64,000 bases of DNA from IMG/VR virus record IMGVR_UViG_2531839014_000003, positions 1 through 64,000 of that record, one strand, 5' to 3'. The translations under genes and the position numbers were made by a program. How positions within the stretch are numbered: the first letter of the stretch is position 1; each line of letters opens with the position of its first letter. This document shows positions 2,152-63,025 of this stretch, one piece after another. A model generated the notes under the pieces. That model worked only from the letters and a program-made list of their open reading frames with translations. It was not told where the DNA came from and did not search any database. The stretch is from a virus. Its lineage: Duplodnaviria > Caudoviricetes.

Positions 2152-2176
2152 ATGTTTCTCCTATTTTTATTAAATA

Positions 2177-2578
2177 TCAGTTTTGCGGATAAAGCAAATC
2201 CGGATTGTCAAAAATGTTGCCAACAACATCAGCATTTGCAAACATTTCAAGCGTATACTGTTGATAGCTATCGTCTATATCATCCACAGCAAATCCTATA
2301 TAATCTTCCGTATACCACATTACTTTTCCGACTGCCTTAATTGCATCATGGTAGATAATATCATTCTCCCAAATTTCTCTACCGTTCTTATCGGTTATTC
2401 CGGCATACTGACAGACGGTTTTAGGGTCTATTTCAATCCATTCCGCATAACGTTCGTCATATCCATGGTCATCATCATATACCGGCAAGATATAGTGATG
2501 TCCTCTGCATTTTACATAATAGCCTTTCTCCCACTCGGCATTGTCCAATCTCTTTGCCTTACATAAATATCTGTCCAT
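2177..2578 (-). CDS. YopX family phage protein
   Basis: TVCQYAGITDKNGREIWENDII and VVGNIFDNPDLL. Confidence 0.85.
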   Translation of the reverse strand: MDRYLCKAKRLDNAEWEKGYYVKCRGHHYILPVYDDDHGYDERYAEWIEIDPKTVCQYAGITDKNGREIWENDIIYHDAIKAVGKVMWYTEDYIGFAVDDIDDSYQQYTLEMFANADVVGNIFDNPDLLYPQN

Positions 2579-2597
2579 TTTGTTCCTCCGTTAAATA

Positions 2598-2783
2598 TTA
2601 ATTTATTGTATCCATCCACCTGCGAATATCGTCCGCCAGGGCTACATTATCTGTGGCATCCGCATAGGCCAATAAAGCCGCCTTTGCCGCCGGGTCCCTG
2701 TCCGGTCGAAGCACAAAACACTCATCCACGATGCTGTTATCCGATACTTTATACACATTGTATTTAACTTTCAATCCGTCCAT
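2598..2783 (-). CDS. Hypothetical phage protein
   Basis: 61-aa ORF with SD, co-oriented. Confidence 0.6.
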   Translation of the reverse strand: MDGLKVKYNVYKVSDNSIVDECFVLRPDRDPAAKAALLAYADATDNVALADDIRRWMDTIN

Positions 2784-2828
2784 AATGTCCTTCCCTCCGG
2801 TTCTCCCGGAAAATGTCAGTTTTGTAAA

Positions 2829-3128
2829 CTAAAGCTTTTGACCGCAGTATGGACAATACTCGTAATCCTCATCTATTGGCACATCACTATTACATTTTCC
2901 ACATTGGATACTATCCTCTGGGTCAGTTTCTGACGGTAAGCTGTTAGGTTTTAAGCGCGCTTCTAACTCGGCAATCCAATAATCCTTATCACACTCGCTA
3001 CACCGCTCATGGACGGTTCCAGTTGATACACTCCGACTACTGAACCGGCTGTATGTAAGTCCCTTTTTATACTTTTTGCAGTTATGCCGACTTGTTAAAT
3101 ATTCACAATCTCCATTACAATATCCCAT
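2829..3128 (-). CDS. Zinc-ribbon phage protein
   Basis: CGKC..YCPYCGQKL C-terminus. Confidence 0.6.
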   Translation of the reverse strand: MGYCNGDCEYLTSRHNCKKYKKGLTYSRFSSRSVSTGTVHERCSECDKDYWIAELEARLKPNSLPSETDPEDSIQCGKCNSDVPIDEDYEYCPYCGQKL

Positions 3129-3331
3129 CTATATTCCTTCCTCCGTCAATCTCGGAAATTCTTTGTCCGTCATATGTTTCCAGCAGATACAAAGTTCATG
3201 ATATTCTCTACTAAGTTTTTTTCTGCTTTATAATCCCAAATTTGCATATCACACCACTTATCTACATTCTTTTGCAAAACATTCATGTGTTTTTACATAT
3301 ACGCTTTTATACATAATTTTCTAACCTCATT

Positions 3332-3895
3332 CTAAATATAATATTCTGGTTTATCAGTTGACCCGAAACCACCATTTCGTACCGTGTTACACTCATCATC
3401 TACTGTAATTCCAAATGGTAAGAAGATACCTTGTGCCATCCCTTGCCATGTTGGTATATCTACTGTTTTACAGATGCACGAATCATTGATTAACTTTACA
3501 AAAATATGTCCTTCATTATTAGACAAAAAATAATCGCTATCAATTATTCCAAAAGTATTACTTAGGCGCACCCCATACTTAAATCCATGTCCGGAACGAG
3601 GTAATATACCTAAAAACCAACCAGGTTCAATCCTACATCTAATACCAGTGGGAATCTTAATTGTCATCCCTGGCTCAAGTATAATATGTACTGGTGTAAA
3701 AATATCATATCCGGCTGAACCCATTGTGGCTCTTTGCGGCAACTTGATTCTCTCGTAGATTTCTGAAAGTAATCCATCTCCCGGAACTCCATATTTCACT
3801 CCAAAGGAGTCAATCATATCTTTGAAAAACTGTTCTCTTGATACCTTTTCAAATTTTGCTATTCTTGTTTCCATCATCATCATCACCTTCCACAT
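3332..3895 (-). CDS. dut: dUTPase (true start probably one of the Met codons at 3874-3883)
   Basis: SAGYD, PRSG, GIIDSDY, RNGGFGST motifs. Confidence 0.95.
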   Translation of the reverse strand: MWKVMMMMETRIAKFEKVSREQFFKDMIDSFGVKYGVPGDGLLSEIYERIKLPQRATMGSAGYDIFTPVHIILEPGMTIKIPTGIRCRIEPGWFLGILPRSGHGFKYGVRLSNTFGIIDSDYFLSNNEGHIFVKLINDSCICKTVDIPTWQGMAQGIFLPFGITVDDECNTVRNGGFGSTDKPEYYI

Positions 3896-14349: not shown

Positions 14350-14429
14350 AACACATCTATATTTTTTTAGAACTTATTTTATCATTCTCTTTTTCCTTTC
14401 TGATGACTTAAAACCACTGTTTCTTCCGC

Positions 14430-15047: not shown

Positions 15048-15110
15048 AAAATCTCACACTCCTTTACTAAAACACTTTATCCTGACATGAAGCTACTCTT
15101 TCATTGTGTT

Positions 15111-16770: not shown

Positions 16771-17006
16771 ATTTAAGCAGGAAACATACGTTTCATTTGT
16801 TTTCTACATTTTTCAGCACATGAAATGTTTTCCACCCTGTATCTAATTTGTCATCATCTACTACCACAAACCCTTTGTTTTCAAGGGTTTCAATAACCTC
16901 TTTTGTTGATTTATCCGAATATCCCTTAATTTCCGCAAATTTCTCTAATTTTGTCATTTTTACCTTTTTTCTGCCCCGATGAAAGTCCTATTTCATTGCC
17001 ATTTTA

Positions 17007-17054
17007 TGTCTATATATAGTGGTTTTATTTTTAATTTACCGCTATATATAGACT
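17007..17054. promoter_or_regulatory. Tandem NrdR boxes
   Basis: CTATATATAG at 17010 and 17042, 32 bp apart. Confidence 0.7.
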
Positions 17055-19319: not shown

Positions 19320-19334
19320 TATTCCTCTCTTTCT

Positions 19335-30384: not shown

Positions 30385-30533
30385 TAAAATAATCTCCTCC
30401 TAAATAAAAATTTGTAAAATAAATTAATAACTAACAAAACTAAAAATATGATAAACAGCCCTTTCAGACTGGAACATAGAAAGTCACTCTATATGAACAT
30501 CTATGATGAAACAGCTCTTTCATTGTGATTCAA

Positions 30534-32588: not shown

Positions 32589-32800
32589 CCTCTCTCAATT
32601 AATATTCCCAACATCCATATACAAAGTGCCCTAAATACTTATCACACTTTGCGCAGTGTAAATCATACTCCACTTCTCCAATCTCATCGTAATAAGGATT
32701 TTTATGTATTGTACTTTCGGAGCCACAGTCACACGTTAGCGGTAAATCTTCCATGGTTTTCACCTCACATAATCACATAAAATAGGAATTTCATTTTGAA

Positions 32801-33133: not shown

Positions 33134-33181
33134 TCTCCTTTTATATATATTTTTTTTATTTATCGCTTTGAAATAAGATTT

Positions 33182-33913
33182 TCATTTCCAATTCAATTTA
33201 CAGTTTTCAATAATTTCTTTTTCCTCAAACGGTAAAGACTCCTTCAAAACATCCATTAATTTTCTTTGAATTTTTAATAGTCTTACACCATTATTATATT
33301 CGAATTCAAACAAACACAATTTAAACCTTTTGTCCCTTACATACTTCACTATATTTTTTCGGAGATATATACGTTCCTTATTTTCTCTTCTTGCAAAATC
33401 TCCATACTTATTAACCATGAACGGATATCGTTCACCGTCAATAACAACTGGATACCATTTATACTGAAGTTTGGACCACTCTTCTATTTCATAATACTCA
33501 TATTCTTTTTCTCTTGAGTAGTAATCATCTAACATTTTCTGGAAAGTTGCTTTATTGATATTGTACCCACTATATACATAACATCGTTGTAGACTCTCAA
33601 GAGTTCCACCACCTATATCAATAAATTCTCCATGTTTCTTATAGTATCCCCAATCATACCAATAATTTTTAATTTTTTGAGTAGTTCCATCTTTCATATG
33701 TAAAGTTAATTCTCTGCCAGCAAATGCCTTTCCCCAAGAATCATATCCTAAATAATCGCTAAAAATTATATTACCATCCTGATCCGTTGCGGAGCCTACA
33801 TAATTGCATCCAATTTTTTCATATGTAATCTCTGGAATCTCGTCAAACATACAGTAATAATGCGGTTCACTCCAGTTTCTATTAACATACATTTTAACTA
33901 TTTTTATATTCAA
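33182..33913 (-). CDS. Hypothetical protein
   Basis: 243 aa; stop codon lies inside a junction site. Confidence 0.6.
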   Translation of the reverse strand: MNIKIVKMYVNRNWSEPHYYCMFDEIPEITYEKIGCNYVGSATDQDGNIIFSDYLGYDSWGKAFAGRELTLHMKDGTTQKIKNYWYDWGYYKKHGEFIDIGGGTLESLQRCYVYSGYNINKATFQKMLDDYYSREKEYEYYEIEEWSKLQYKWYPVVIDGERYPFMVNKYGDFARRENKERIYLRKNIVKYVRDKRFKLCLFEFEYNNGVRLLKIQRKLMDVLKESLPFEEKEIIENCKLNWK

Positions 33914-34150
33914 TCACCTCCTCGATCGAAACTTGGTTTTCATGGTCTATAAAACAACCACGTCTCCCCATTTTGTATGTTTAATTTCAATGTCAGATTC
34001 ACATAAATCTTCTGTTCCTTCGTAGCATCCTCCACTGTCTCTATATTGAATCTCTACATCAAAATCTTTAGCGTTATTTTTTATTGCCCACTCATATAAT
34101 TCCTGAATTGTCACATTTATCACCTCCAATGAAACGTGGGTTTATTCCTA

Positions 34151-34837: not shown

Positions 34838-35536
34838 TTATCATGTAAGGTCATTACCGGCTTACCCTTACATATTTTATTTATACTCGGAAAACCTGCT
34901 TCAACCGAGTTGTTGGCTCATAGAACTTCATGTGTGAACAGTATTCCCTGGCATTCTGTTTCAGCTCAGCACAGTCAGAGTTTAATTTCTATGATTTAAT
35001 TGCCACCAATCAGTCTGACAAACCAATATTATGTCACATTAAATAGATGCTTAATTTTTAAATCTTCAAGTTCTCTCAAAACAATTCTATCGCCCACTGG
35101 CCAGAACCCTATACCATTTATTTCTCTAGTTTCGATGTTACAAAATATATCTAATGCTCCAACACTTATTTTGTAATCATAATTCATTTTAACAAAACCA
35201 AAGTTAGCAAGCTGTTCTATTTTTACCTCATCTTTTAATTTAACCATCCTTACCTTTCTTCGCAGGAAATCGAAGTTTCAACTTAAATTGAAATATACTC
35301 TACTTCATCATATCCTTCCTTTGCCAGCTCAATCCCATATCTTACCGCTCTAAGATAATCGTCTGCATCAAATAAATCTCTATTAATGGTTGCATCTTCT
35401 GGATATTCAGTTAAGTCGTATACACTAAAAAGCTCATCATCTGTTTCTGGATCGTAAACTGACTGTTCACGCATTCCCCAATCACTTTGTTTGTCTGCAA
35501 TTTCTAAAATTTTCTTCTTCATTCACATATTCTCCT

Positions 35537-37261: not shown

Positions 37262-37863
37262 CTATGTATTCTCCTTAAGCATGAAAGGTTTATAATATTT
37301 TCGTATCTCCTCAAAAACCATATAGTATAACTGATTACATAACGCATAAAATTTTATACAATGACAATTCAAATCATCTCCAAGCAAATTTTCTACTACA
37401 TGCCTCAACACAAACGAAATGATTGAATACCTGTTTAGTGGAATATTGTGATTAACATGTGCTTGAATTAAATATATTAGTTCATCTTCTGTTTCTTCTA
37501 GTTCATGCTTATACACATGTTTAATTAATTCTCCATTCTCGTCTCTGGAGTCTCCAATAAGCATTTCAAACATAAAATTTTGAAAATCATATGAACGAAA
37601 ATGTTCTCTAATCTTATTTTCTGTTATTTTATCTAACAGCAACTAATTCTCTCCTTTCCAGATGAAACCGATTTTTCTTCTGCCTATTAAAATTTAATCC
37701 ATCCGTCAGTAATACCAGTCATCCAATAAATATGCTCGTATCTATCGTTTGAAAGACAACCTCTGCTTATTTTATCCATTATTATTTTTCCCAATAATGA
37801 ATGGCAACGTGGTCAGACTTTAGTCTCATTGTTTTATTTATATCTTCTGTAGTAATTGCAAGT

Positions 37864-39233: not shown

Positions 39234-40428
39234 ATGTATATATCCTTTCCTATTTTAATTTTATCTCCGAAATTTAGTCCATATAGCCCATGACTCCATT
39301 CAACCCACGGCCTTTTACAATCTGCTTTGCAACTGACACTGGAATGTAATTTTCAAAACCCTCTCCCTCGCAGCGGAGCAATCCTTTGTATTTTCCGTAA
39401 TCCTCAAGTTGCTCCAAAACCATGTCAATATTATATGCACTTGAAGCAATCTGACGCTCAGCCAACCTTATCTGGTCTTTATTCAGCCAGGTAATCCACT
39501 TACCGCAATCACCGCAATACAATCCTGTGTTACTATCAGATTTCTCAATAAAAATGTCCTTACTATGACATTTACTACATTCAAATTCTTTCATCTATTT
39601 ATCATGCCTCCCTTGAAATTCCAAAGCTATCCCTATATACTTTTCCATTTTTATATCAATATTAGATGGATACTGTTTAATATCTCCAACTAATTCTGTT
39701 GAAAAAGATATTTTAGTTATTATGTTATTATTGTCCACTTCAATATTTCCAGTAGTTCTTCCAGGAACACGAATTGCTAAGGTTTTATCCCATAAATCTC
39801 TTGCATCGTAAATGTAATGCTTATATCTGGGATTACTAACCGTATAACCACACACATCATCAAGTTTTCTTGTAAGATCGCAATAATATTCTTTATTATT
39901 CTTATTATATTTTTTCTCTAACTTCATTTTAAATACTCCGAAAGTCGCATTTTATCTGTTACCATATTCCATATTGAATTTTCATCCATAACCCATTGTC
40001 TACAGTAATTTCATAGGGCTTATAGTCATTCTCTTTAAATTCAAATTGATAACCATATTTTAGGATCTCAATACAATTCGCAATTTGTCTGTGTTTTTCT
40101 TCCTCAGTGTATGTATTACTACTAAAAGTTAACCACTCATACTTATCAATCTCTTTCTGTATATCCGTTTTATTTCCACAGAATTTTCCCTTTTCTCCTA
40201 ATACTGTTGAGAATTCTAATGTAAATATATTAGATGATGAAAAATCATGTTCACCCTCTTCTACAGTTGCCCAATAGCCACAAGAGAAACATTGAATTTT
40301 AATTATTGTTTTATTTGTTGAGATATTATGCCCTTCAAAGCGTTTCATATAATCTCTTCTGCAATTAGGACACCTTATTTTGCTCAATCTACCTCACCCT
40401 CCTATTCCCTTGAAATTCACGTTTCCTA

Positions 40429-40908
40429 TTAAAACCTTGTAATTAAATCCTCTATCATACCAGAATAAGCAAATGGACTATCAATAACTCTCTTTGAGTA
40501 TTCAAACCTCTTTAGAAACTGCGCCACTTCTCTTATATCTGAATGATTTAATGGCACGAATTTTATAAAATCCATTTTTCCATGAATACATACAACTGCC
40601 CAACTATGATATTTATCCCTGGCAACATCAACACCAACATCGCATATATCATTCATTAGTTTTCTGCAATCGTCAGCAAGTTTTACTGTATTCTCTGCTA
40701 CACTTTCTGCCTTTAAATAATTACCATATGCTTTATGTAATAAGTCTTCTGCTCTTGCTACAGAATCTTTTAACTCATTATATTTACTTTCAATATCTTG
40801 AATCTTCAGTAATTCATCAGCAAGCAGCCATTTTTTCAACTTGTCCTTTATCTTAATAATTTCACTTCCCTTCACACGAAAGATTTGTTTCCTCATTTCC
40901 ATAATCAA
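40429..40908 (-). CDS. Hypothetical protein
   Basis: 159-aa ORF. Confidence 0.5.
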   Translation of the reverse strand: MIMEMRKQIFRVKGSEIIKIKDKLKKWLLADELLKIQDIESKYNELKDSVARAEDLLHKAYGNYLKAESVAENTVKLADDCRKLMNDICDVGVDVARDKYHSWAVVCIHGKMDFIKFVPLNHSDIREVAQFLKRFEYSKRVIDSPFAYSGMIEDLITRF

Positions 40909-41906
40909 AAATACTTTACACTAATATATCTGAGTACTCTAGCCATTCCTAATCCACCATACCTCACAGGTTTCATACAATAGAGCCAAAGTCTTGGGTG
41001 AGTCTTAAGTAGTCGCTGAAATCGGTTAACACCTTTCTCTAAATTACAACCATAGGCGCAAAATACACATCCCGTTCTAGTGTATCCTGTGCAATAATAC
41101 TTACCATCCTCATCAATACATATTTCTCCATACACTGATGGATATGGTACATCAAAACGATATAGATATTCCAGGACATCATTTTCGGTCCAAAAGCTAA
41201 TCGGCTGGCTGCTAGATTCCCCTTTATCAAAAGCATTGCAACCATTGTGTAACCACTCCGTTTTACGTTGTTTGCTCTCACAGGCCATGGTGCCAATTAT
41301 AGGTATTCTCCTACTACTCTTGTTAAATCTTTTGGCCGGATTCTTCTTCATAATCTGACAGCACTTATTGGAAATATTAAATGGAGCATTGATAAGATAC
41401 TTCCATTTCTGCATATTATAAACGCCTGTTTCACTGCCATTGAAACATCCGTAAGCCCAACAATCTTTACCAAGCTTCTTGACATCGTGAACCTGGCGGC
41501 TGACAGTTTTAGAGATAAGCGGATATCCTTCAGTCAACACCACATCTCTAAATGATATACGCTTACCAGATTTATCTCTCGGATAATCTACCATCACTTC
41601 AACTTCAATACCATATCTGTTTCTTAAATAAGTTGGAAACTCTTTGACATGTTTTTTGACTTCTGGAAATTCAAGACCTGTATCCGAGAACCATAGAACC
41701 AATTTACAGTTTAGTACTTTACATACCCTGGCTGTCAAATCAGCCAATACGCTACTATCCTTGCCTCCACTAAAGGAGACGTAACACATATTCTTATATA
41801 TTTTATATGCTTCTAATATCCTGGTCTGGCTTACCTGAATTTTTCTTTCCAGACTCCAGGACTGCATAATCTTTAAATCTGTTGCTGTATATTTGCTTTC
41901 TACCAA
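40905..41906 (-). CDS. PAPS reductase-family protein
   Basis: SFSGGKDS PP-loop, DTGLEFPE, CC..MKK.P, RTGCVFC; probable TTG start at 41906. Confidence 0.85.
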   Translation of the reverse strand: MVESKYTATDLKIMQSWSLERKIQVSQTRILEAYKIYKNMCYVSFSGGKDSSVLADLTARVCKVLNCKLVLWFSDTGLEFPEVKKHVKEFPTYLRNRYGIEVEVMVDYPRDKSGKRISFRDVVLTEGYPLISKTVSRQVHDVKKLGKDCWAYGCFNGSETGVYNMQKWKYLINAPFNISNKCCQIMKKNPAKRFNKSSRRIPIIGTMACESKQRKTEWLHNGCNAFDKGESSSQPISFWTENDVLEYLYRFDVPYPSVYGEICIDEDGKYYCTGYTRTGCVFCAYGCNLEKGVNRFQRLLKTHPRLWLYCMKPVRYGGLGMARVLRYISVKYF

Positions 41907-42880
41907 TATGTACTTTGCCTCACGCAATTTATTACGCTTGCATGAGGCAAAGCCATACTTAGCGGGTGTCTTTTTATGTCACTACCGCATATCTTTTTCG
42001 ATTATTTATCTCAGCGTTCCAGCTTCATAATCTCGTGACAACCTTTATCTACTAAAGGCGTTAAATACATCTGGTGAAGACCTACCCAATTGGTAGCACA
42101 GCGTCACAAACGAATTCAATATTTTTAATCATATAATCTAGCATCGGATTCTTTGGATTAGCCGAGTTATAGGAATCACATTCCATTTGCACATTTGATT
42201 CAACATAGAAATTAAATGAGTCTGATGATTCTAGATGTGAGTTGTCTAAAACAATATACTTTTCCGTATGGCGAAGATTACCTTTTATTGTGCTATATGA
42301 AATTGTAATCTTAAAAACCGGAAGCGTAACCCGTGTTTTAATAAAATTCAACGGATGTACATTTTTAAGTTGCTCCTTAACATAAGGGTCGTATTGTTCA
42401 AACACATCCATGTGAGTCCTACAACCTACCTCCTCAAAGAATTTGCTCGGATGCACTATTTTTCACCACCTTTCCATTATAAATGGGATTTGTTTTATTT
42501 TCTTGTATATTCTGAAATCCATAATCCAATTACCAATTTTTACAGTCGGAAGTTTGTAGGAGTATAATTGAATCATTTGTAGAGCACAATCAATTCGTAT
42601 CATTATACACCTCCTTGACATACGCTGAATCTAACCACTCAATACAATCTTCAATAGCTTCTTGCTGTCCATGTCCAACATAGTCCTGAAAATAGTTACC
42701 ACTTGGAGAGTACCAAAATGTCACATAATATGGAATCGGATTCTCATTTCAATCATAATCACCTATATCTTCTTCTGTTGAATGAACGAGCAACGGTGCC
42801 AGTTCTTCTAACGACATCTGTCTGATTTTATCTATATTTCTCATAATCATTCATTCTCCAATGAAACGATGGTTTATTCC

Positions 42881-43308: not shown

Positions 43309-43984
43309 TATGTATATCTCCTCTCCGTTTAGCTCAAATCCAATTCATGATGCCATTCCAATGTTATAATCAATATATCAATATCATCATCGTTTAATAG
43401 TTCAAGCTTATTTTCACCACATTTCCCTACGTATGTACCATACTTGTGACGCAAACATTCTAATAAATATTTTTTTACTTCAGGTAATTCTTGTTTCTTC
43501 ATGGCGGCCTCCTATTACACAACCTGAAACCAAGATTTTCTCCTATTTTTGTGGCATGTCATATATTCTTTATAAATTCATAATCATTACAATTCCAAAA
43601 ACTATTATTCCAACGCAGTATACAACTGCCTCAGGCCAACTCATTTATATAATCACCTCACTCCACTTCTATATCTAACGGTACCCCTCGTCTCCAGCTC
43701 AGTTTAATCTCACCGCTTTGTAATTTCTTCAATTGTTCCTGACATTGTTCGTCAGTATCATAGCCAGAGCAAAATACCCTATCATCTGGCGCTCTCCATT
43801 TATCTTTTAAATCAATGATGAAATACAAAACAGTGTGCTTAAGGTTAAACGGCTTCGTACAAATTATGTATCTATTGTCTCTGGCCTTGACCGTATATGG
43901 CCGTTTGTCTGTAGGAATATAAATTTTGTCTTCTACTTCAACTCTCATTTTTAACACCTCACGAATCCAAAGTTTCCTTCCAGC

Positions 43985-44380: not shown

Positions 44381-44423
44381 TACTCCTCCCATCATCGCTG
44401 AAAACTCGACTTTCATCTTTTTA

Positions 44424-44537: not shown

Positions 44538-44996
44538 GTTTACACAATTCTTACGAAACCGAAATTTCAGCCTATATCAGAATTCTAACTGTACTAAAAT
44601 CCGAATCTTTAAAGGTTTTATTCCTATACTGAGCCAAACACATCCTATTACTATATAACCCGACAGTAAAAGTTTGTTCATCTTTTAACTTTGAAACGAT
44701 GTTAATATATAAATTTGGATAGAAAGGTTTATCATTTTCTTTGCACCATGCCAATACCTCATATACATTTTCGTCTTCTAAAAACTCGTCTGCTACCACG
44801 TCACCATTGGCGTCTTCACCCTCAACGATTTCAAAATACCTTTCAAATTCATCGTATGACATACACCCTAAATGAACACCCTCACCAAATTTAAAACTAA
44901 TAATGCCATCTTCTGAAATGTCAACTATATCGCACACCTCACCAACATTTGTGAATGCTCCCATAGGTTTTACTAATTTAATTTTATCTTCCTTAG

Positions 44997-46130: not shown

Positions 46131-47300
46131 TGGTAACGACCTCCTTCTGAATATTTTTTGAAATACTACATGCGGTTGTGAAGCCGCACGTAGCCCATTA
46201 CTTTTTTATTCAGTGATACTTATAATAGGAGTAGAGCCACCCTGAACCTTTGGAACCTTACCATCTCTGCCTCCCTCTATACTTTATTCTCTTAAAACTC
46301 AGTCTAAATGTTTGTTTTAACTGCTCTCTTCATTTTTACTATCTTGTTCGTACCAAGCATCCAGAACTGTCAGATACATATCCCCTAATTTGGTCAACCA
46401 ACATCCTCCGATTCCACTTCCATGCTCTAAAATATCTTTTGAATCTAACATGTATAAAATGAACTGTAACACTCCATAATCCAGGTCATTTACTGTATCC
46501 AAGTTAAGATCGCTATAATATTTTTCTTGTACTGATTCAAATGCTACTTTTTTATTTTGCCAATCCTTCCTGATATGAAGAACCCTCCGGATCACCTCAT
46601 GAGTATCTTCAGGAACACCACAACCGCACATACCTACAATTTCGTATGAAAAGAAATCCATCAGTTCCTTAATGAGAGATTCTTCATACCATTCTTCTCT
46701 ACAGCCATTTATCACAACATTGTTACATGATATACAACTGCCTGGATATTTCTCTATTATCCATTCTGTTATTTCGCTTAATTTCATACTTCTCCCTTCT
46801 TTTCACGGAAGAAATGAAAATTTCATTGCTCAATAACTTTTAACATACTAATAGGAATTTTTCTAATCTCACCGCCAGCCAATTGAACAATTCCATATGT
46901 ACCCCAAAAATTACTCGTCGTATCAATCCACTCTCCTGTTTCGTTATTGCAGGCATGACACGGTGGCAGTTCATTACAATATACCGCCATGTCAAGACAC
47001 ATTCGACACTCACTACTTGATTTTTGAATCTCTACATTCTTCATTCACAATCTCCTTGAATCTCTTTCTATTTCCTGCAACACACATAGTGCATAAATCA
47101 TTTTTAGGTTTACATTTAGGCGGTTTGTTTTCAAACCATTCCATGTATGGACACATTATTTAACCCCTTTCCGATCTGCTTTTGTCTTCTTCCTTGCTTC
47201 CTTCTCGGCTTTTAACTGATTGTCCAGTTTTGCCATAATACTCGTCATCTTTGCAAATTCTGTTCTCGGTTTTCTTTTACTGTTGTTCTTTCCCATTGTT

Positions 47301-49279: not shown

Positions 49280-50599
49280 TAAACCATTGAATTACAAGGA
49301 TATGCATATCACTTTAACCGGTGTTATTGTAAAAATTCCTTTCTTTTCATTTTGATTTACTATATAAAAATGTTTGCAACCATTGATATATAGCCACTTA
49401 GTTATTCTCTTTTACCTTATAAGATAAAAGAAATATTTATTATCTTTTATATATTCTCTTTGTTGTCTACGTATTCTTCTGTTAATCAATTCATTATGGA
49501 ATCTCTTTGAGTGGTCTGAGTCCATAATAGGTTCTAATGACCCGTCTTTTCTTAATTTGAAAACTGCGTAGCCATCCTTTATTGGATCACACTGTTTATA
49601 ACAAAATTTACCAACTTTCTGCTTTATATAAACAGAGGGGGTATGGTAAAATCCGAACTCTTTTCTGAATGAAATATATTCCCAGTATGGATGATTCATT
49701 TGTAGCAAATTCTCTCTTGCTGTTTTTCTTACTTCTTTTAATTTCAAAACTACCAACTCCATTTTCGACTTGAGTAACATTTCTTCTTATTTAACATCTA
49801 CTTCTCCGAAATCTAATTTATTGCATATGGCAATCGGAATCCCATAAAATTCATCAAATGTCCTTTCACTCCCTATCTCCTTACTAACATGTCCATCATT
49901 ACACTTGGTCATTAACGCACATCTAGTAGCTGAACTCATAACCAAATAAGAATCATCTTTTCTGTAATTTGTCATATTTGTATAGTCTACAATAGCAGCC
50001 ATCAATTTACTTACATCTATACTTCTTTTAATATCAACTCTCAATTTTTACCTCCGCTACGCCGTCTCTAACACGTTACAAACGCCCTCAATAATCTTGT
50101 CTCTCAAGTCCTTGCAAAATTCTTCAAGTAACACAACATCTTTTTCCCAATCATGAATCATCAGTTCATCCCACGAAAAAATTGTCCCTGATTTATTTAA
50201 ATTTTAATTCTCCTTCCTTCAAAATGGTTCAACCACCTTTTCAAAATCCTCATTACTAATTCCAAATGCTTCATAATCGTACATCCAATGAGAGATGTCA
50301 GCCCTCTTACCTCTGATAACAGGGTCGTTTTTAGTTGGTTTCAATATATCTATATGGCTACCATTTTTGAAGTTAATTACCGTCTTCCCAACTTCTGATA
50401 TTTCTCTTTTAACAATTTCATATTTATTAATAATTCTCTTAATTTCATCAAAATATTCTTTTGAATATTCCTCACATGAAAATGCTATTCCGATACAAGA
50501 TTCAGAATAAAGGATAGCTCTAAAAACTGCTTCTATTCCTTTAATATACATACAATCGCCATTTTCTTACTCAAAATGAAAGTCATATTTCATGACTAA

Positions 50600-51559
50600 C
50601 TATTCTATTTTTACTCCTATATATTCTAACACTTCTCTCATACCAAGGCCGCCATCTGATACAGGTTTCATGCAAAAATACCATAGTTCCGGATGAGTTT
50701 TCTTCAACATCTGAAATCTATTTGGCTCTTTTTCTAAATGGCAACCATAGCCACAGAAAATACAACCGGTTCTTTTATATCCTGTCGTATACCATTTACC
50801 AGTTTCATCCTGTTTAATTTCTCCATATACTGATGGATATGGTAAATGGTATGTAGCTATGTATTCTAATACATTTTGTTCAGTCCAAAATGACATTGGC
50901 TGACTTCTTTGTTCTTTTCCTTCAAAAGCATTGCACCCATATTTTATCCAATTTAATTTTCTATTAACGCTCTCTTCTGTCATTGTACCAAATATTGGTT
51001 TTAATCCTGTTCTTTTAGCAAAATTTTTGTTAGGAGTTTTCTTTAGTTTTGTACAACAATAGTCAGATATCTTAAAAGGTGCATCTACAAGAAACCACCA
51101 TTTACCATTTCCTCCAAACAAAGTATTTTCTATTTCCCCACTTAAATATTTTGCTCTTGTACACGTCTGATCATTTTTTGCGCTATTGACATATCCAGAT
51201 ATTCTCTTACTAATAATTGGATAACCGTAATTCAAAACAACATCTTTAAATAATATTCTTTTTCCTTTTCTGTCTCTTGGGTATTCTATTATTGTTTCAA
51301 CATCTAATCCTTCAAATTCTTTTTTCAAGAAATCACCATATGTCTTTACGTGTTCTCGTAATTCAGGAAATTCTAATCCTGTATCTGAAAACCACAATAC
51401 TAATTTACAATGGAACATGTCACAAACTTGTGCAGCTATATAAGCCAATACTGTACTATCTTTCCCACCACTGAATGATACATAACACTTTTTATCATTT
51501 CTCAAATACCACTCCATCAGTCTTGCTTGTGTGACTCCAACCTTTTCACCTAAGGTCAT
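50600..51559 (-). CDS. PAPS reductase-family protein (start may lie further upstream)
   Basis: SFSGGKDS, CC..LKK.P, RTGCIFC; paralog of 40905..41906. Confidence 0.85.
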   Translation of the reverse strand: MTLGEKVGVTQARLMEWYLRNDKKCYVSFSGGKDSTVLAYIAAQVCDMFHCKLVLWFSDTGLEFPELREHVKTYGDFLKKEFEGLDVETIIEYPRDRKGKRILFKDVVLNYGYPIISKRISGYVNSAKNDQTCTRAKYLSGEIENTLFGGNGKWWFLVDAPFKISDYCCTKLKKTPNKNFAKRTGLKPIFGTMTEESVNRKLNWIKYGCNAFEGKEQRSQPMSFWTEQNVLEYIATYHLPYPSVYGEIKQDETGKWYTTGYKRTGCIFCGYGCHLEKEPNRFQMLKKTHPELWYFCMKPVSDGGLGMREVLEYIGVKIE

Positions 51560-52631: not shown

Positions 52632-53348
52632 CTATTTTTTATTTTCATTTTCAACTTCTCTCTTAAACCTTTCTTCTAGTTCAAACACTGATTTACCTTC
52701 GCCTTTCATAGGCTCGTCAATCCTGCTTTGCAACCCTTTCAGCATCTTCCAATATTTAGGAAGATATAAATACATATTTTTAAGTTCTTTAAGATTTTTG
52801 TTTCTACACGACCAGCAACTTACACGGTCTAATATAGAATACAAATCAACTCCGTCCTCTTCCCAAGTGATATCGTGCTTGTAACAATAATCAAGACAAT
52901 CCTTTTCAGACATATTCCACTCTGATAAAGGAGCTATTTTGTTGTAATCTAACTTCTGAAGTCTCTTAGTTTCATCTGATGCTATACCAACGTACACAAT
53001 AGAATCTTTCGTATATTTGTTGCATATTGCTTGTTTTTTAAATGTATGCCATCTACAAGTTCCACCACAATATCCATCTCCATATACTATTTCTCCAGTT
53101 CTCTTTTTCTTTTCACGAATAAGCATGTCTATCCAAAACGGATTTTCGGGTTTTAATTCTGTATATTTAATGTTATTCTCTTCTAACACCGGAATAATTT
53201 TATCTCTCACATCATAAACTGCTTTAAACTCCATGCCAGTATCGTAAAATATCACTTCGTCAAGAGGATATTTTTTCTCAATTAACATCAATATCATAGC
53301 TGTGCTGTCTTTCCCCCAGCTACAACTTGCAATATATTTTTCTTTCAC
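52632..53348 (-). CDS. PAPS reductase-family protein
   Basis: SCSWGKDS, YDTGMEF, RVSCWSC; probable GTG start at 53348. Confidence 0.85.
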   Translation of the reverse strand: MKEKYIASCSWGKDSTAMILMLIEKKYPLDEVIFYDTGMEFKAVYDVRDKIIPVLEENNIKYTELKPENPFWIDMLIREKKKRTGEIVYGDGYCGGTCRWHTFKKQAICNKYTKDSIVYVGIASDETKRLQKLDYNKIAPLSEWNMSEKDCLDYCYKHDITWEEDGVDLYSILDRVSCWSCRNKNLKELKNMYLYLPKYWKMLKGLQSRIDEPMKGEGKSVFELEERFKREVENENKK

Positions 53349-53534
53349 ACCAACCACTAACCATATTCTAGTCAATGGTAATTATCTTCTGCTGACAAAT
53401 CGGCCAATTGTTATACTTTTACTATCACACACATTAATCTGAATTGTGATAAACCTAGTTTCACTAGGATAAGGTGTTACTCCTTTCTTTTCTTCTCATT
53501 GTCTTATTCCTACTTTCTTACTTTTCCAATTAAA

Positions 53535-54271
53535 TTGAATTTTCAAGCGATACCACTTAAAAAAATCAAAAACTATGTAATCTATTGTGATATCCCTTAT
53601 CGTGGAACTACTAAATACGCTACTAATTCGTTCTCATATGAAGAATTTTATGAATGGGTAAAAGTAGCGAGCATGAATAATACAGTTTTGATAAGTGAAT
53701 ATTCAATGCCTGATGATTTTACTTGCATTTGGCAAAAAGAAACCAAGACATTATTGGATAGTAACAAAAATAAGGATGATAAAAACAATATAAGGGTTGA
53801 AAAGTTATTTACGTATATTAGATAAAAATTCAAATTTATAAACTTTACATCTTTGATGTTTGGTATCTGTTTTTTTAAGTTTCTAATAGCACCAGCAGAC
53901 CATTTCCCGCTATTATCACCTTTAGAATCTCTTGCATAACCACCGAAATATTTTGCACCGAAACTTGCACAAAATCCTACAAGACCTAAGTACCAATCTG
54001 GATAATTTTCTTTGTTCTGCTGAACTTCCTTATATTCATTCTCTAAGATTCTTTCTGGCAATTCAGTTTCATGTTCCTGTGCATATTTTAATAATTCGAT
54101 CAACTGTTTATGTATGTCACAACCTATTCTTTTCTTATGCTTAATCTTATCAATCATGTTTGCACCACCAACAAAAGGCTCTAGATAACCATTTGTGTCA
54201 TCAGTTATATAAGACTGAATAATTGGCGCTAAATCCTTACTTAATTTGTTCTTACTTCCAACGTATCTTAT
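53535..54271 (-). pseudogene. Dam/D12-class N6-adenine methyltransferase split by an internal inversion
   Basis: YVGSK and EPFVGG on minus strand (54271-53825); YCDIPY, ISEY, EKLF on plus strand (53544-53825); re-inversion gives a 242-aa ORF. Confidence 0.88.
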
Positions 54272-56088: not shown

Positions 56089-57450
56089 CTATTCCTCAAT
56101 CCAACCGTCTGTAATTCCAGTCATATAATAAATCAAATCTTCTTTTGTATTATTTAATTCTCCGTCTATGACTTTATTTAGAATTACGTTTAACCAATAA
56201 CCGATATCTTTTCCTTCTTTTATCATCATTGTTTTCTTGACATCATTACCATTAATGACTAAATCTTTCAATGAAAAACATGGTTTCTCTGATAATACTT
56301 CTTCTAATAATGCTTTAATATCAAATACTTTCTGTAATCTTCCATTCTCGTAATCAGGATTTTGACCTTTAATATCTGCTTTTCGTACTTGAAGAAGTCT
56401 TCTAAACTGCAATTCTCCTATCTTATTTAACCATCTCTTGATATACTTTTTGCCAACTTCAAAAGTAGCGTCATGATAATAAATCAGTTCTACAACAGAA
56501 TTTCTAGTATCATTGTCAAATCTCATACGTTTCATAATTTCATCTGTCATATCCGCACTAACTCTACCATGACCTTTGAAATGCCTTGTTCCATCTTCAT
56601 CGTCTTGATATGAATGTGGTTTACCAATATCGTGAAATAATACAGCTAATTTTATAATTAACTCTTCATCTTCACAGTTCTCAATCGCATGAATTGTATG
56701 TTCCCACACATTGTAATTATGATATGGATTGTTCTGTTTAAACTCAAACATATCTTTTAACTCTGGAATAAATAATGCAAATACTTCATTATATAAAACC
56801 ATCTGTACACAAAAACTATTTGAAGATACTATTTTGCAGAACTCGTTATTGATTCTTTCAATAGATATATTCTCTAAATTTTTATATTGTTTATGAATTT
56901 CCCAATCTGTATCAGGCATCATTACAAAATCAAGTTGAGAAGCAAATCGAATTGCTCTAAGTATTCTTAGAGCATCTTCCGAAAATCTATCTTTTGCAGA
57001 ACCAACACAATTTATCTTGTTATATTTAATATCTTCCATTCCACCAAAAGGGTCAATCAAACCAGCTTCGTCATTATAAGCCATTGCATTGATTGTAAAA
57101 TCCCTGCGCTTCAAATCTTCAATGAGATTATCTGTAAAAGTTACGATATCTGGTCTTCTATGATCAGAATAATCTCCATCCAGTCGATAGGTTGTAATTT
57201 CATATGGTTCGCCATTCGCAACAACTGTAATTGTTCCGTGTTGCAATCCAGTTTCAATTACCTTCTTATTTTTAAAAATGTCTAACATCTCCGAAGGAGT
57301 TGCTGACGTACAAATATCCCAATCACTAGGTGCTCTACCTAAAATACTATCTCTAACACAGCCTCCGACTACATATGCCTCATAGCCATGTTCTTGTAAA
57401 ATATGAATCAAATCATATGCATCTTGCGGTATGCTTATTTTAAAATTCAC
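56089..57450 (-). CDS. cca: CCA-adding tRNA nucleotidyltransferase with HD domain
   Basis: VGGCVRD, DWDI, RRDFTINA, EDALRILRA, ERI, HDIGK. Confidence 0.92.
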   Translation of the reverse strand: MNFKISIPQDAYDLIHILQEHGYEAYVVGGCVRDSILGRAPSDWDICTSATPSEMLDIFKNKKVIETGLQHGTITVVANGEPYEITTYRLDGDYSDHRRPDIVTFTDNLIEDLKRRDFTINAMAYNDEAGLIDPFGGMEDIKYNKINCVGSAKDRFSEDALRILRAIRFASQLDFVMMPDTDWEIHKQYKNLENISIERINNEFCKIVSSNSFCVQMVLYNEVFALFIPELKDMFEFKQNNPYHNYNVWEHTIHAIENCEDEELIIKLAVLFHDIGKPHSYQDDEDGTRHFKGHGRVSADMTDEIMKRMRFDNDTRNSVVELIYYHDATFEVGKKYIKRWLNKIGELQFRRLLQVRKADIKGQNPDYENGRLQKVFDIKALLEEVLSEKPCFSLKDLVINGNDVKKTMMIKEGKDIGYWLNVILNKVIDGELNNTKEDLIYYMTGITDGWIEE

Positions 57451-59009: not shown

Positions 59010-60047
59010 TCATTCCTTTAACACCACCACAATATATTTGTCCATCTCATGTCCCAATTTCACACAATTTCCATGAGATATGTGATTTTTCCATGCGTTA
59101 TATGATTCATCAAACTTTTCTCTATTTAATTTTCCTTTTTTAACCAAATAAGCCATTCTCTTAAATCTCTTTTTAGCAACTCTTTTATTTTCGTTTTTCA
59201 ACTTTCGTATAACCTTACCATCAATTGTAACGTATGTATGAAATCCACAAAATTTAATACCATTCTTGAAAGGTATAATCTGTGTCTTTCCATTTAACTC
59301 AAGTCCGAGACTATGAGCAAATTCATATATTGTAGACAGACACCATTTCGCATATTCTTTTGATTCAACAATCAAGTAGAAATCGTCCATATACCTTCCA
59401 TAATATTTCACACCTAATTCTCCTGTGATAAAATGGTCAAGTCCCGATAAATATAAAAGTGCAAACACTTGACTTAATTGATTTCCCAATGGAAGACCGA
59501 ACCCCTTAGTGCTATCAATAAACTTCTCACATAACCAGTATACATCGTCATCCTTTAAAAAATATCGCACCATATCCTTCAATATGTCATGGTCAATACT
59601 GTAAAAGAATTTGCTAATATCAGCTTTTACAATCCAACAATCATATCCGTATTTATGATATGCTAGATACATTTGTGCTCTAAGCCAATCCAAACCAAAT
59701 AAAGTCCCCTTTCCCACTTGTCCAGCAAAGTTATTTGGTACAAATTCAGTTTTTAAACACGGCAAGAGTACGTTGTCACATAAACTATGTTGCACTATTT
59801 TATCTACAAATGAACCAGATTTTATTATTCTTTCTTTTGGTTCATAAACCGTAAACTCATTATACTTTCCAACTTCATATGTCTTTGTTTCCAATCTTCT
59901 CTTTATCTGATGAATTCCATCAAGTGCAGTAATTTGAAATCGTTGTCTACTTTTAGAAAATCCTTTACCCGATTTAGATTTTATATATGCTTGATACAAA
60001 TTGCCAAAATCAGTTATCTTCTCGAAATCAGTTTTACTTTCTATCAT
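59010..60047 (-). CDS. DGR reverse transcriptase
   Basis: KADISKFF, GLPLGNQLSQ, RYMDD, F.GF. Confidence 0.96.
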   Translation of the reverse strand: MIESKTDFEKITDFGNLYQAYIKSKSGKGFSKSRQRFQITALDGIHQIKRRLETKTYEVGKYNEFTVYEPKERIIKSGSFVDKIVQHSLCDNVLLPCLKTEFVPNNFAGQVGKGTLFGLDWLRAQMYLAYHKYGYDCWIVKADISKFFYSIDHDILKDMVRYFLKDDDVYWLCEKFIDSTKGFGLPLGNQLSQVFALLYLSGLDHFITGELGVKYYGRYMDDFYLIVESKEYAKWCLSTIYEFAHSLGLELNGKTQIIPFKNGIKFCGFHTYVTIDGKVIRKLKNENKRVAKKRFKRMAYLVKKGKLNREKFDESYNAWKNHISHGNCVKLGHEMDKYIVVVLKE

Positions 60048-60250: not shown

Positions 60251-60273
60251 ATACAATAGACAACCCGCAAAGC

Positions 60274-60636
60274 TCATCTCTGTTTATCTTTCGAGCGCCA
60301 AGCTATGGTCATGTACTTTATATCATCAATTTGCTTTTGCCAATATGACACCGTGTCAGTTCCAATCAAATTCATGTTCATTGATAGTTCTACATAACAC
60401 GATAATTTGTCGCAGCAAGATATTGCTTTAGTCTGAAGCTCTAGTCGTTCTGATTTTGAGGTTTCTAATTTCAGTCTATTTGCATCAAGCAAGTATTCAT
60501 AAATATCCATACAACGATTTTGAATACGTTTTATTAAAATCGAGTGTTTGACTGGATATCTTTTTCTGTTTGATGTAATTGTCATAGTATATTCCATAAG
60601 TTTTATAGATTTTACAATGACATCAAGTTCTGCCAT
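60274..60636 (-). CDS. avd: DGR accessory variability determinant (four-helix bundle)
   Basis: 120 aa, YP..H..L..RI, AN, W motifs; lies between target and TR. Confidence 0.88.
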   Translation of the reverse strand: MAELDVIVKSIKLMEYTMTITSNRKRYPVKHSILIKRIQNRCMDIYEYLLDANRLKLETSKSERLELQTKAISCCDKLSCYVELSMNMNLIGTDTVSYWQKQIDDIKYMTIAWRSKDKQR

Positions 60637-60675
60637 GAATAAGTTCCTACCTCCATTTGTTATTGTCCAGCCACC

Positions 60676-60694
60676 GGCACGGCTTCGCCATGCC
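60676..60694 (-). promoter_or_regulatory. DGR target-recognition hairpin
   Basis: GGCATGGC-GAA-GCCGTGCC downstream of VR. Confidence 0.75.
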
Positions 60695-61500
60695 TAGTGC
60701 ACTTGCCTCCCGCTAGTTTTTTCAGATACAAAGATTGAAGATTTAATGATGCAAAACGGGCGAACACCCCCATCGTCCCAACCACAGTCGCCGAAGCCCA
60801 CGTCGCCGCCGGAGTCGACACACCGGACGTAAGAGGCCCCGGTGCCTGAAGGTGTACTGTCTGGTGTAGCAAGCCACCACCAGCTATCACTCTTAGGAAT
60901 ACTCTTCCTACATTCCCTATATAAATCCAGTGTTGGGATTGCAAGAATATCTCCCTCAACAATGCCATAATCATCTAACCCGTCAAGAGATAATAAATCT
61001 AAAGCAATTGGCACGAGTCTGTCTCCAAACTCTTTTCTTAAGTCTTTAGCTAGCTCACTATCCACAAGCTCATTGCGAATGTTGGATTCTGCATAATTGT
61101 TATTTTTTCCAAAAGTAGATTCCTCAAGAAAACCATCAAGCAAATAGTATGTACCTTTTTCATCGCTCTTAATTGGTGTCCACGCACGTCCACACATAAC
61201 AACAAATTTATCTTTAAGATACTCTTTTACTGCTACACGAAAGTCAGCCTCGTATCTTCCAGGATCATCGTCGTACCAATCCGGAGTAATATCCTGATCA
61301 ACGATATATTCCCATTTGCCAATATCGACTGCCTTGTTTCCATCAGGTGGTACAAGTTCCGCTCTAACAAATGTCTTCGAAGCGTTAAAATGAGTATCTT
61401 CAATTCCAAGACTTTCTAACAAATCTGAATGACTATCGTTTCCTTCTGGTGCTAAGACTACTCTGTTCTTTAAAATAATTCCTGATTTAAATTTACACAT
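60694..61500 (-). CDS. DGR target protein with C-terminal CLec-like (DUF6273-like) domain
   Basis: WWWLATP...VRCV..GVRP C-terminus encoded by VR. Confidence 0.9.
   Translation of the reverse strand: MCKFKSGIILKNRVVLAPEGNDSHSDLLESLGIEDTHFNASKTFVRAELVPPDGNKAVDIGKWEYIVDQDITPDWYDDDPGRYEADFRVAVKEYLKDKFVVMCGRAWTPIKSDEKGTYYLLDGFLEESTFGKNNNYAESNIRNELVDSELAKDLRKEFGDRLVPIALDLLSLDGLDDYGIVEGDILAIPTLDLYRECRKSIPKSDSWWWLATPDSTPSGTGASYVRCVDSGGDVGFGDCGWDDGGVRPFCIIKSSIFVSEKTSGRQVH
60755..60838 (-). repeat. DGR variable repeat (VR)
   Basis: 70/84 identical to TR; all 14 differences at TR adenines. Confidence 0.96.
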
Positions 61501-62263
61501 ATTATTTATCTCCTTCTTTTATTTTCTATTTATTTTATTCTCTCTTATGACGGACAAAAATCCTGATTTCTTCCTATTCGCTTTTAATTATAGTAGTTCC
61601 ATTTTTCAATCACTTTATCCCCTCTAATTCTTAATTCTTGCTACATATTTAGTGTCAATCAAAGCAACAAGATTTTCCGTTGATTTTCCATTCACATAAA
61701 TGCTTCTCATAATATTTAATGGAATTGATACACAATCTCCATTACTGAGAAACCAAATGTAAAACTTATCATTCAAAACCTTTATGGAATGAATTCTTTT
61801 ATAGAACTGTTTTAAATCTGATTCTAATTCTCTTTGCATCCAATGATAAAAATCATATCTGTCCATACTCAATTCGTTCATATTATATGCTCCTTTGCTC
61901 TTTTCATAATAATCACCCTGTTCTTTGTGATAATATTTTAGTTCATATAAAATATTCGTTTCTTCCGTTTTTAGGCATCAAGGGTATTTGGCGAAATCTT
62001 CATCACCTTCAAAAACATCCAGGAACACATTTTCAATAGCCTGTTCAATATGGCTCATACCAGTTTCAGTATCACATTGTTCCATTAACTGTTGTGCAAC
62101 GTACTCAGCAAATTCCTGTCTTTTTCCTTTCTTGACTTTAATGTAATTTTCTCCATCTTCACTATAATTTTCTGGGCTATTATTAAAAGCATTGATAAGA
62201 TTACTAATCGGAATTTCCCATCTTACAACCTTGTCCGTTACCGTTGCTGTAAATCCATTTTCT

Positions 62264-62950
62264 TCAAATTTTTTCATTGCATATCTCCTTATAACTTAAA
62301 ATTTTAATATTTAATGGAATATACTCATAGTCTTTGAAAAAATGTTCCTTGTCATTTGGTGTCACATGGAATACCCAACATGGGCAACTCCGTTTATGTT
62401 CTTCATATTCCAGCCACCATCCAACACAACATTCACCATCTTCACTCTGTTTTTTTCTTTCAACAGTAGACAGAATAATCACATAGTTCTTGTTTGGTTT
62501 AGTTAATAAATCTTTATGATACTCTAAAACTTGCTCATAATTATCACACACACCATAACAACCACCATTTAATAATTTTTCTTCACAGTTATTTTTAATA
62601 AACGCATCCCCATTGAAAATATATCCATCATGTCTATATACACCTTTGTCATATCTTTCAAAATATGATTTCTCGCTACTTAAATCTACACCGTTTATTT
62701 GTGCAATCATTCCACAAATATCATCTGGTTTTACTGTATAATACATTAAATCTTTTAACATCTTTACTTCCTCCTTTGAAATCGAACATTTATATGTTAT
62801 TGTCTTTTTCTCTTTTAACTTTCTCTTTCTCATTTCTTTTTCTTCACACATGTCGCAGCGAGACAAATAATGAGGGCACGGTTTATCATCAATTCCACAT
62901 ATTGGATAATCTAAATCAAGAGTCCAATCACCAGGCATTTTTACCTCCAA
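62264..62950 (-). CDS. Hypothetical protein
   Basis: 228-aa ORF. Confidence 0.5.
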   Translation of the reverse strand: MEVKMPGDWTLDLDYPICGIDDKPCPHYLSRCDMCEEKEMRKRKLKEKKTITYKCSISKEEVKMLKDLMYYTVKPDDICGMIAQINGVDLSSEKSYFERYDKGVYRHDGYIFNGDAFIKNNCEEKLLNGGCYGVCDNYEQVLEYHKDLLTKPNKNYVIILSTVERKKQSEDGECCVGWWLEYEEHKRSCPCWVFHVTPNDKEHFFKDYEYIPLNIKILSYKEICNEKI

Positions 62951-63025
62951 TCTACTATAAAAGTAAAGATTCTTTTTGTTAATTATCTAGTATTTTTTAA
63001 AGTAATCTACAGAGTAATAGCACTC

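Follow-up and report, generated by a model that had tools for sequence, protein, structure and literature searches.

Whether the mosaic genomes of phages are assembled by recombination at conserved linkers, or by random illegitimate joints that selection then sorts, is an old question, and it is raised again by the first 64 kb (positions 1 to 64,000, referred to here as the window) of IMG/VR virus record IMGVR_UViG_2531839014_000003. In this DNA a short interrupted palindrome, TGAAA-N6-TTTCA, recurs at the junctions between accessory genes. An initial annotation of the window had taken these palindromes for the sites of an integron-like array, with dispersed repressor operators as the alternative. 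The computational analysis described here partly supports that interpretation, in that the sites are seams between gene modules, whereas an integron-like array is unsupported and an enzyme-driven mechanism less likely. Our preferred reading, to which we give a probability of roughly 0.4, is that the palindrome is a dispersed operator, or a roadblock of the stoperator kind, and that crossovers also take place in its conserved islands, as they do in the promoter-early stem-loops (PeSLs) of T4-type phages.

Form and placement of the palindrome

The virus record is 165,423 bp long and is classed by IMG/VR as a provirus that is 91% complete. The early, replication and accessory genes are on the minus strand at ~1.2-95 kb, and the late and structural block is on the plus strand at ~100-164 kb. 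Within the window, exact TGAAA-N6-TTTCA was found 4 times against an expectation of 0.48, and 22 copies were found against 9.6 ± 3.0 when at most one mismatch was allowed; in both cases the observed count was reached by 0 of 100 shuffles. The spacing is specific, as GAAA-Nn-TTTC has 32 copies genome-wide at n = 6 and 4-10 copies at every other n from 0 to 12. When all 256 4-mer palindromes were scored at 13 spacings over the 165-kb genome, GAAA-N6-TTTC was the top outlier (z = 9.1), and 19 of its 32 exact cores are intergenic, compared with the 14% of the genome that is intergenic.

The junction enrichment was also seen with a symmetrized position weight matrix (PWM), for which we quote a threshold of 10 bits for the genome count and of 8 bits for the intergenic list. 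At 10 bits or more, 50 sites were counted against 9.2 in shuffles (maximum 15), and 33 of the 50 are intergenic. Of the 46 intergenic sites that reach 8 bits, 45 fall at 11-93 kb, in the minus-strand early and accessory block. The sole strong intergenic match outside this block, at 161820-161835, has a 7-bp stem, a 4-nt loop and then a T-run, and was set aside as terminator-like. About 30 junction sites had been proposed for the window and 25 were listed; 20 of these score 9.5-20.4 bits, and the other five (46304, 48012, 54348, 58997 and 61556) are below 8 bits, at the background level. The PWM added three good sites that were absent from the earlier list, at 40877, 43525 and 53530.

The location of the site between the upstream stop codon and the next Shine-Dalgarno sequence was borne out for the minus-strand early and accessory block. 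Sites lie 0-8 nt past the upstream stop and, in long gaps, ~11-45 nt ahead of the next start, and the arms have a weak outward extension to CA-TGAAA...TTTCA-TG. Several sites had been said to supply the stop codon of the upstream gene, and the TGA of the arm is indeed that stop at 16780, 33169 and 46810. The claim that the junctions of the tightly packed replication operon are free of sites also held, with no intergenic site at 17.06-30.38 kb.

The site is always upstream of the Shine-Dalgarno sequence, at a distance of 1-25 nt and on the transcribed intercistronic stretch, which is where a small mRNA hairpin might act 5' of the ribosome-binding site in processing, stabilization or translational control. 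Such an RNA-level element is nevertheless very improbable. Among 45 sites, Watson-Crick counts did not exceed the independent-arm expectation at any of the 9 arm positions and compensatory changes numbered 0, and weak sites have their defects in one arm or the other, not in both. Folding of eight of the best sites gave -0.3 to -6.4 kcal/mol with z values of -2.2 to +0.7, close to shuffles, and the arms were left unused in several of the folds. In the Rfam search only tRNAs were matched, and no family matched the sites. An RNA hairpin is thus disfavored by the absent covariation, the weak folding and the lack of an Rfam family.

An association with sigma-70 promoters was ruled out, because the number of sigma-70-like promoters (73) is below the 87 expected and neither a -10 nor a -35 element stands at a fixed offset from the site; long, promoter-like gaps are found only at sites 16980 and 30507. 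It is also quite improbable that the palindrome serves as a promoter for a sigma factor or RNA polymerase of the phage, from which the transcription of each accessory cassette would start separately. The genome does have a divergent sigma-70-like gene at 67971-68645 (-), whose product matches phrog_351 (E 7e-12) and Sigma70_r2 at 22.4 bits, just under the cut-off, but this protein is just 29-38% identical among genomes that have the same arms. A sigma-like gene is present in 3 of the 3 near genomes tested and undetected in the more distant genome G007, and many small genes have a site ahead of them, an arrangement also seen for T4 early promoters. However, the site is symmetric with its halves 11 bp apart rather than ~23, no second conserved element is found at the -10 distance, and some sites end 13 nt before the start codon, which leaves no room for a leader. 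The gene adjoining the sigma-like gene, at 66520-67950 (-), encodes a 476-aa protein with a GmrSD_N-like domain; the products of both genes have 29-38% identity in near relatives.

Given the lack of arm covariation, the weak RNA folds and the lack of a sigma-70 promoter, the element looks, from its sequence, like a site in double-stranded DNA that is read by a symmetric (dimeric) protein, with one helical turn between the half-sites. A 4/5-N6-4/5 geometry is that of 434-type and CRP-type operators, and inverted arms around a 6-bp core are the layout of Xer/dif-type recombinase core sites. The palindrome has this core-site layout, with arms of 5-7 bp and an N6 center, but the geometry is common to helix-turn-helix (HTH)-dimer operators.

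Linkers, slots and the edges of the replication module

Relatives were collected by querying IMG/VR with the leading gene of the replication operon, which gave 74 loci. The replication module is collinear with that of the relatives at ~82% nucleotide identity, and the upstream accessory DNA is almost wholly different. In 40 near relatives, 169 sites were found in this upstream accessory DNA against 21 in shuffles, and 31 in the replication genes against 27; in 30 relatives, the 10 kb downstream of the helicase contained 103 against 27. Over whole genomes, GAAA-N6-TTTC also ranked first among palindromes in G002 (z 9.7) and G005 (z 9.2). The motif is absent from G007, and relatives at ~50% identity have no sites and no clear analogous motif. 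Sites are thus present in ~45 gaps of this genome, and at least 40 related phages have them in the corresponding regions.

When 42 near relatives were compared, identical 16-mers that include the core were found to recur at junctions with unrelated left and right flanks, which bears out the claim that the sites are boundaries of exchanged gene blocks. The sequence GTAAATTTCGATTTCT has 12 combinations of flanks, drawn from 8 types on the left and 8 on the right. Six linker families were found, with the cores TTTTTC, GATTCG, TATCGG, TTTCGA, CTGACA and TCACTG. Each family has 0 or 1 copy per genome, and the order D-C-H-B-A-I has 0 violations in the 42 genomes. The intervals between consecutive linkers are occupied by 6-12 unrelated DNA forms of 182-5436 bp, and the conserved island around the linker is 18-22 bp. 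The core is near-invariant within families, the variants being CATCGG in the TATCGG family (three times) and ATTCGA in the TTTCGA family (once), and the outermost bases of the left arm vary with the stop codon of whichever gene is upstream. In the window, sites 35265 and 37663 have the same relative order as families B and H. The fixed core address and the invariant order indicate that cassettes do not move between positions. An integron-like array with units gained, lost and inverted is not supported, given these fixed addresses, a site of 16-20 bp that is not attC-like, and the lack of a conserved recombinase.

The main rival to a dispersed operator is that a phage or host tyrosine-type recombinase binds the arms and swaps strands across the 6-bp core. 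Cores would then have to match, so that only sites with the same address would recombine, and co-infecting relatives could swap the contents of slots, even the whole replication module, while gene order and their own genes are kept. We regard this as doubtful. The match of the arms and 6-bp core to Xer/dif-type core sites, the uniqueness of the core within a genome together with the invariant order, the joining of up to 8 left and 8 right unrelated flanks by one 16-mer with its core, and the constancy of a core whose outer arm bases follow the neighboring gene all agree with it. The arms, however, are short for recombinase-binding elements, and some crossovers lie between sites with differing cores (L006/L026).

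The edges of the replication module are such seams. Near site 16980, homology to the three closest relatives ends at 16977-16979, at the edge of the perfect site, and homology to a further relative ends within site 16780 (Table 1). Near site 30507, it ends at 30514 in L001, 30519 in L004/5, 30505 in L011 and 30504 in L012. That homology over the module stops so close to sites 16980 and 30507, within a few bases, is as expected of exchange addressed by the core. The rest of the genome is little shared: just 21 of the 265 proteins have a homologue in every one of the three near genomes, and only eight proteins, those of the replication module, are highly conserved (77-95% identity) with motif-bearing relatives, while the structural genes are unshared. 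Between 17064-30384 and the corresponding DNA of G002, G003 and G005 the protein identity is likewise 77-95%, and almost nothing else is shared. A module of such identity amid unrelated genomes appears, on sequence grounds, to have been exchanged horizontally as a block.

Each edge of the module also has a pair of boxes with the perfect palindrome CTATATATAG, of which there are only four copies in the genome, with a spacing of 31-32 bp within each pair. The two composite elements, each of a box pair and a perfect site, are direct repeats that bracket the 13.5-kb replication module, and ACTATATATAGT boxes are found upstream of some linker sites in relatives too. The box pairs could be a promoter, a second operator or an origin element.

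The window encodes a DnaE-type polymerase, a RecD/Dda-like helicase, DnaB, a primase, NrdD and an NAD ligase, together with the Sak4-like annealing protein and the PD-(D/E)XK exonuclease of the replication/recombination module. These contents raise another explanation, namely that the palindrome is the target of a module-linked nuclease, nickase or other DNA-transaction protein, and that breaks made there seed recombination. The motif co-occurs across unrelated genomes with this one highly conserved block, which holds the RecD-like helicase, the PD-(D/E)XK nuclease, Sak4 and a 196-aa protein with no assigned function; it is absent from G007, where the module is just 36-65% identical; and two perfect sites bracket the module. 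Such a hot spot is still unlikely. No homing-type nuclease is tied to the sites, a break-prone site beside ~45 genes would be costly, and the intergenic-only placement looks regulatory. To our knowledge, none of the protein families of the module reads a 16-bp palindrome.

The expectation that breakpoints would fall at the sites was satisfied only in part. Homology in the window does stop at sites 16980, 16780 and 30507, but just 19% of the ends of homology blocks are within 20 nt of a site. Among junctions able to hold a site, 144 of the 147 with a site (98%) are breakpoints in some comparison, as are 296 of the 336 without one (88%); the odds ratio is 6.5, with a baseline that is already 88% and genomes that are not independent. 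The breakpoint frequency at site-less junctions and the low share of block ends at sites both count against a recombinase that works across the core. Shine-Dalgarno-like words, other A+T-rich intergenic words and the ACTATATATAGT box are likewise found in many different contexts, and an unbiased screen for joint 14-mers was noisy. Because seams are also found at site-less junctions and at other short intergenic words, a general homology-driven process fits better than a dedicated enzyme.

Recombinases, the methyltransferase inversion and the binding protein

As stated in the initial annotation, no recombinase is encoded in the window. The search for further tyrosine recombinases did yield three PF00589 genes elsewhere in the genome, all with intact R..HxxR..H/W..Y motifs (Table 1), and the relatives have 2-4 each, which is compatible with strand exchange at the cores; none of the three, however, is conserved among motif-bearing phages. 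The 272-aa enzyme of the early block was rejected as the cognate recombinase as it is absent from 5 motif-bearing relatives, the 346-aa enzyme as it is 49% or 29% identical, or absent, in relatives, and the 331-aa enzyme as it is only 24-35% identical. No serine recombinase was found in the genome. No recombinase therefore co-varies with the conserved arms, in contrast to the replication proteins with their 77-95% identity.

An inversion at 53535-53833, between two sites with the same core, had been offered as support for recombination at the palindromes. The inversion is real. It splits an N6-adenine methyltransferase gene (motif YCDIPY) that is intact in relatives, and flipping the segment restores a 204-aa methyltransferase that matches the relatives from end to end. 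A perfect 9-bp inverted repeat, TTGAATTTT / AAAATTCAA, is present at the two ends of the segment, and the exchange lay inside this repeat, which is one of five perfect 9-11 bp repeats in that 1.2 kb. The sequences brought together by the inversion are both motif-like and have the core TTGAAT in common, which would suit a recombinase, but in the restored arrangement neither end reaches 6 bits, and it was the inversion itself that created the 10.6-bit site at 53530. The value of the inversion as evidence for site-specific recombination is weakened by these poor parental ends and by the nearby 9-11 bp repeats.

We return to the preferred reading, in which a dimeric protein would bind the two 5-7 bp inverted arms, (CA)TGAAA and TTTCA(TG), and would probably not contact the 6-bp center. 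This protein, a regulator encoded by the phage or the host, may damp or block read-through in long, mostly promoter-less accessory operons, in a role akin to that of mycobacteriophage stoperators and of the SPBRE/MrpR sites of SPbeta. The site and 2-3 flanking bases form the 18-22 bp island of identity between unrelated neighboring genes. As the islands stand amid unrelated genes, we propose that crossovers between co-infecting relatives resolve in them, presumably with the help of the Sak4-like annealing protein and the PD-(D/E)XK exonuclease that the phage encodes. In this way the sites would become the seams of a slot-and-linker mosaic, as PeSLs do in T4-type phages. We infer the binding of the regulator, its effect, and a recombination at the sites that is driven by homology rather than catalyzed by an enzyme.

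Several results weigh against this proposal. The dispersed operators first named as the alternative fit at least as well as the integron-like reading, but no binding protein emerged from the conserved and HTH candidates of this genome. The HTH_3 proteins were rejected since they are not conserved in relatives, a sequence search for a homologue of MrpR (YopR) gave no match at E <= 1 in the genome, and the 293-aa first protein of the replication operon is a double-OB single-stranded DNA-binding protein rather than a binder of double-stranded DNA. The sites are missing from tight conserved operons, though the gaps there are too short for one. They are symmetric and confined to the early block, whereas stoperators are asymmetric and oriented, and unlike SPBRE they are not adjacent to sigma-70-like promoters. 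For homologous recombination, 18-22 bp of identity is short, but one such island joins up to 8 x 8 unrelated flanks. The binder may also be a host protein.

Two further comparisons were made in the search for the binder. BLASTP of YopR and YopP against the recombinases of the phage was not significant, and a 126-aa protein downstream of site 37663, ~50% identical in relatives, was dropped as it is acidic and without DNA-binding features.

Table 1. Positions of the palindromic sites and of the features discussed with them. Scores are PWM bits from the intergenic scan; for the sites, strand is entered as a dot.
Feature	Position	Strand	Score (bits)	Remark
Junction site	14409..14424	.	10.2	5 nt past upstream stop
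Junction site	15088..15103	.	12.8	
Junction site	16780..16795	.	19.3	TGA of arm is upstream stop; homology to relative L173 ends at 16791
Perfect site	16980..16995	.	20.4	Downstream edge of replication module
Two CTATATATAG boxes	17010-17019 and 17042-17051			14 nt upstream (transcription direction) of site 16980
Perfect site	30507..30522	.	18.9	Upstream edge of replication module
Two CTATATATAG boxes	30537-30546 and 30568-30577			14 nt upstream of site 30507; arrangement as at 17 kb
Junction site	32778..32793	.	13.5	
Perfect site	33169..33184	.	14.4	Stop codon for gene 33182-33913
Junction site	33927..33942	.	16.7	Next start codon 13 nt on
Junction site	34130..34145	.	12.4	
Junction site	35265..35280	.	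18.7	Core CTTCGA, 1 substitution from linker family B (TTTCGA)
Junction site	37663..37678	.	18.3	Core AATCGG, 1 substitution from linker family H (TATCGG)
Weak junction site	39939..39954	.	9.7	
Junction site	40411..40426	.	17.1	
Junction site	40877..40892	.	16.3	New relative to earlier list
Weak junction site	42862..42877	.	9.7	
Weak junction site	43525..43540	.	9.6	New relative to earlier list
Weak junction site	43962..43977	.	9.5	
Junction site	44400..44415	.	12.9	
Junction site	44554..44569	.	14.5	
Junction site	46810..46825	.	17.3	Stop codon for gene 46823-47044
Perfect site	50577..50592	.	18.8	
Hybrid site	53530..53545	.	10.6	Exists only through the inversion
Inverted segment	53535..53833			3' part (~residues 109-204, ~97 codons) of N6-adenine methyltransferase gene
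Weak junction site	61948..61963	.	10.0	
Tyrosine recombinase	80955-81773	-		Among early accessory genes
Tyrosine recombinase	114793-115833	+		Between exonuclease and terminase
Tyrosine recombinase	158598-159593	+		Among tail-fiber-like genes

The closest isolates are SPbeta phages, and the polymerase of the window is 38% identical to YorL over its full length. One window protein has letter-identical copies in 387 assembly blocks, three of them with contigs >1 Mb, which indicates that the phage is a common prophage. Two tRNAs are found in the window, and a toolkit for tRNA repair and DNA modification is located at 38418-39233, 56089-57450, 40905-41927, 50600-51559, 52632-53375 and 59010-60047; its members are a Thg1-like tRNA-His guanylyltransferase, a CCA-adding enzyme, three PAPS-reductase-family genes and a reverse transcriptase of the diversity-generating retroelement kind. 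Positions 1-2000 have a G+C content of 0.425 against ~0.34 in the remaining genome and contain an open-ended plus-strand open reading frame (1-990) and a minus-strand gene for a 62-aa excisionase-like HTH protein (1260-1448); this part may be the prophage end or host flank.

Farther along, a small HTH_3 gene and a gene for a 414-aa transposase (phrog_2331) at 72691-74301 (+) are on the opposite strand within the minus-strand early block and are probably an inserted element of the insertion-sequence kind. A 124-aa protein encoded at 70023-70397 (-) matches MazF-like growth-inhibitor PHROGs, with 37-58% identity in near relatives. A 920-aa protein encoded at 105855-108617 (+) matches phrog_8308, which has no assigned function, and has no Pfam match; its gene occupies the position of SPbeta yonO, upstream of the exonuclease and terminase, and the protein may be a candidate YonO-like single-subunit RNA polymerase.

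Comparison with known systems

The PeSLs of T4-type phages are regulatory cassettes that mediate modular shuffling (Arbiol et al. 2010, PMC2839356; PMC4122927). Like the palindromes, they are conserved cassettes between a stop codon and a Shine-Dalgarno sequence, lie in hyperplastic regions of small ORFans and mark the joints of shuffling. In contrast, PeSLs consist of a sigma-70 promoter and a G+C-rich terminator hairpin, and here there is neither a promoter nor a stable hairpin. PeSLs also recombine within one genome to give mini-circles, whereas each site here has a private core and the order never changes.

The stoperators of Cluster A mycobacteriophages, bound by the repressor (L5 gp71), number 20-30 per genome and are mostly off promoters, and the repressor blocks elongation (PMC6550527). 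The likeness is that one protein-binding motif is repeated tens of times in short gaps between genes, mostly off promoters (PMC6550527, PMC9283540). Stoperators differ in being 13-bp, asymmetric, monomer-bound and transcription-oriented and in being found on both genome arms.

The SPBRE sites of SPbeta are bound by the repressor MrpR (YopR), which has a tyrosine-recombinase fold (PMC10516654). The copies examined, ATACA-N7-TGTAT, stand just upstream of Shine-Dalgarno sequences, and SPbeta does not carry GAAA-N6-TTTC. The two phages belong to the same broad lineage, and in both an interrupted palindrome is directly upstream of the Shine-Dalgarno sequences of early genes. SPBRE has a constant N7 spacer and ~10 copies, all at promoters, whereas the sites here have ~45 copies, off promoters. 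If the binder is a repressor, the stoperator and SPBRE idea would be extended to the jumbo-sized prophages of Firmicutes.

The core sites of tyrosine recombinases (Xer/dif, lox, integron attC) resemble the palindrome in their inverted arms, 6-bp asymmetric center and location at cassette boundaries. They differ in that the arms here are just 5-7 bp, no recombinase is conserved and the cassettes keep their position. In integrons, the attC sites are 57-141 bp long, imperfectly palindromic and folded as single strands, and they have R''-L''/L'-R' boxes. The island here is 18-22 bp without pairing covariation, and the three PF00589 genes are distant from the array. If the binder is a recombinase, it would represent new machinery for gene exchange, and core-addressed exchange, if true, would mean that modular evolution is driven by an enzyme in a way that differs from integrons, shufflons and PeSLs.

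The modular theory of Susskind and Botstein, with the boundary sequences of lambdoid phages, reportedly held that short conserved linkers lie between interchangeable modules. The sites described here are likewise short conserved sequences between swappable modules and serve as crossover points; the difference is that they share one palindromic protein-site motif and have position-specific centers. A clade of large, widespread gut prophages with an unusually clean slot-and-linker layout thus bears on the question of how phage mosaics originate. One palindromic motif is combined with position-specific centers, a fixed order and up to 12 unrelated gene blocks per slot, and a replication module that is highly similar between otherwise unrelated genomes ends exactly at two such sites. 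The linker model becomes testable, whichever protein binds the motif. In summary, the element mixes features of PeSLs, stoperators and SPBRE but fits none of them.

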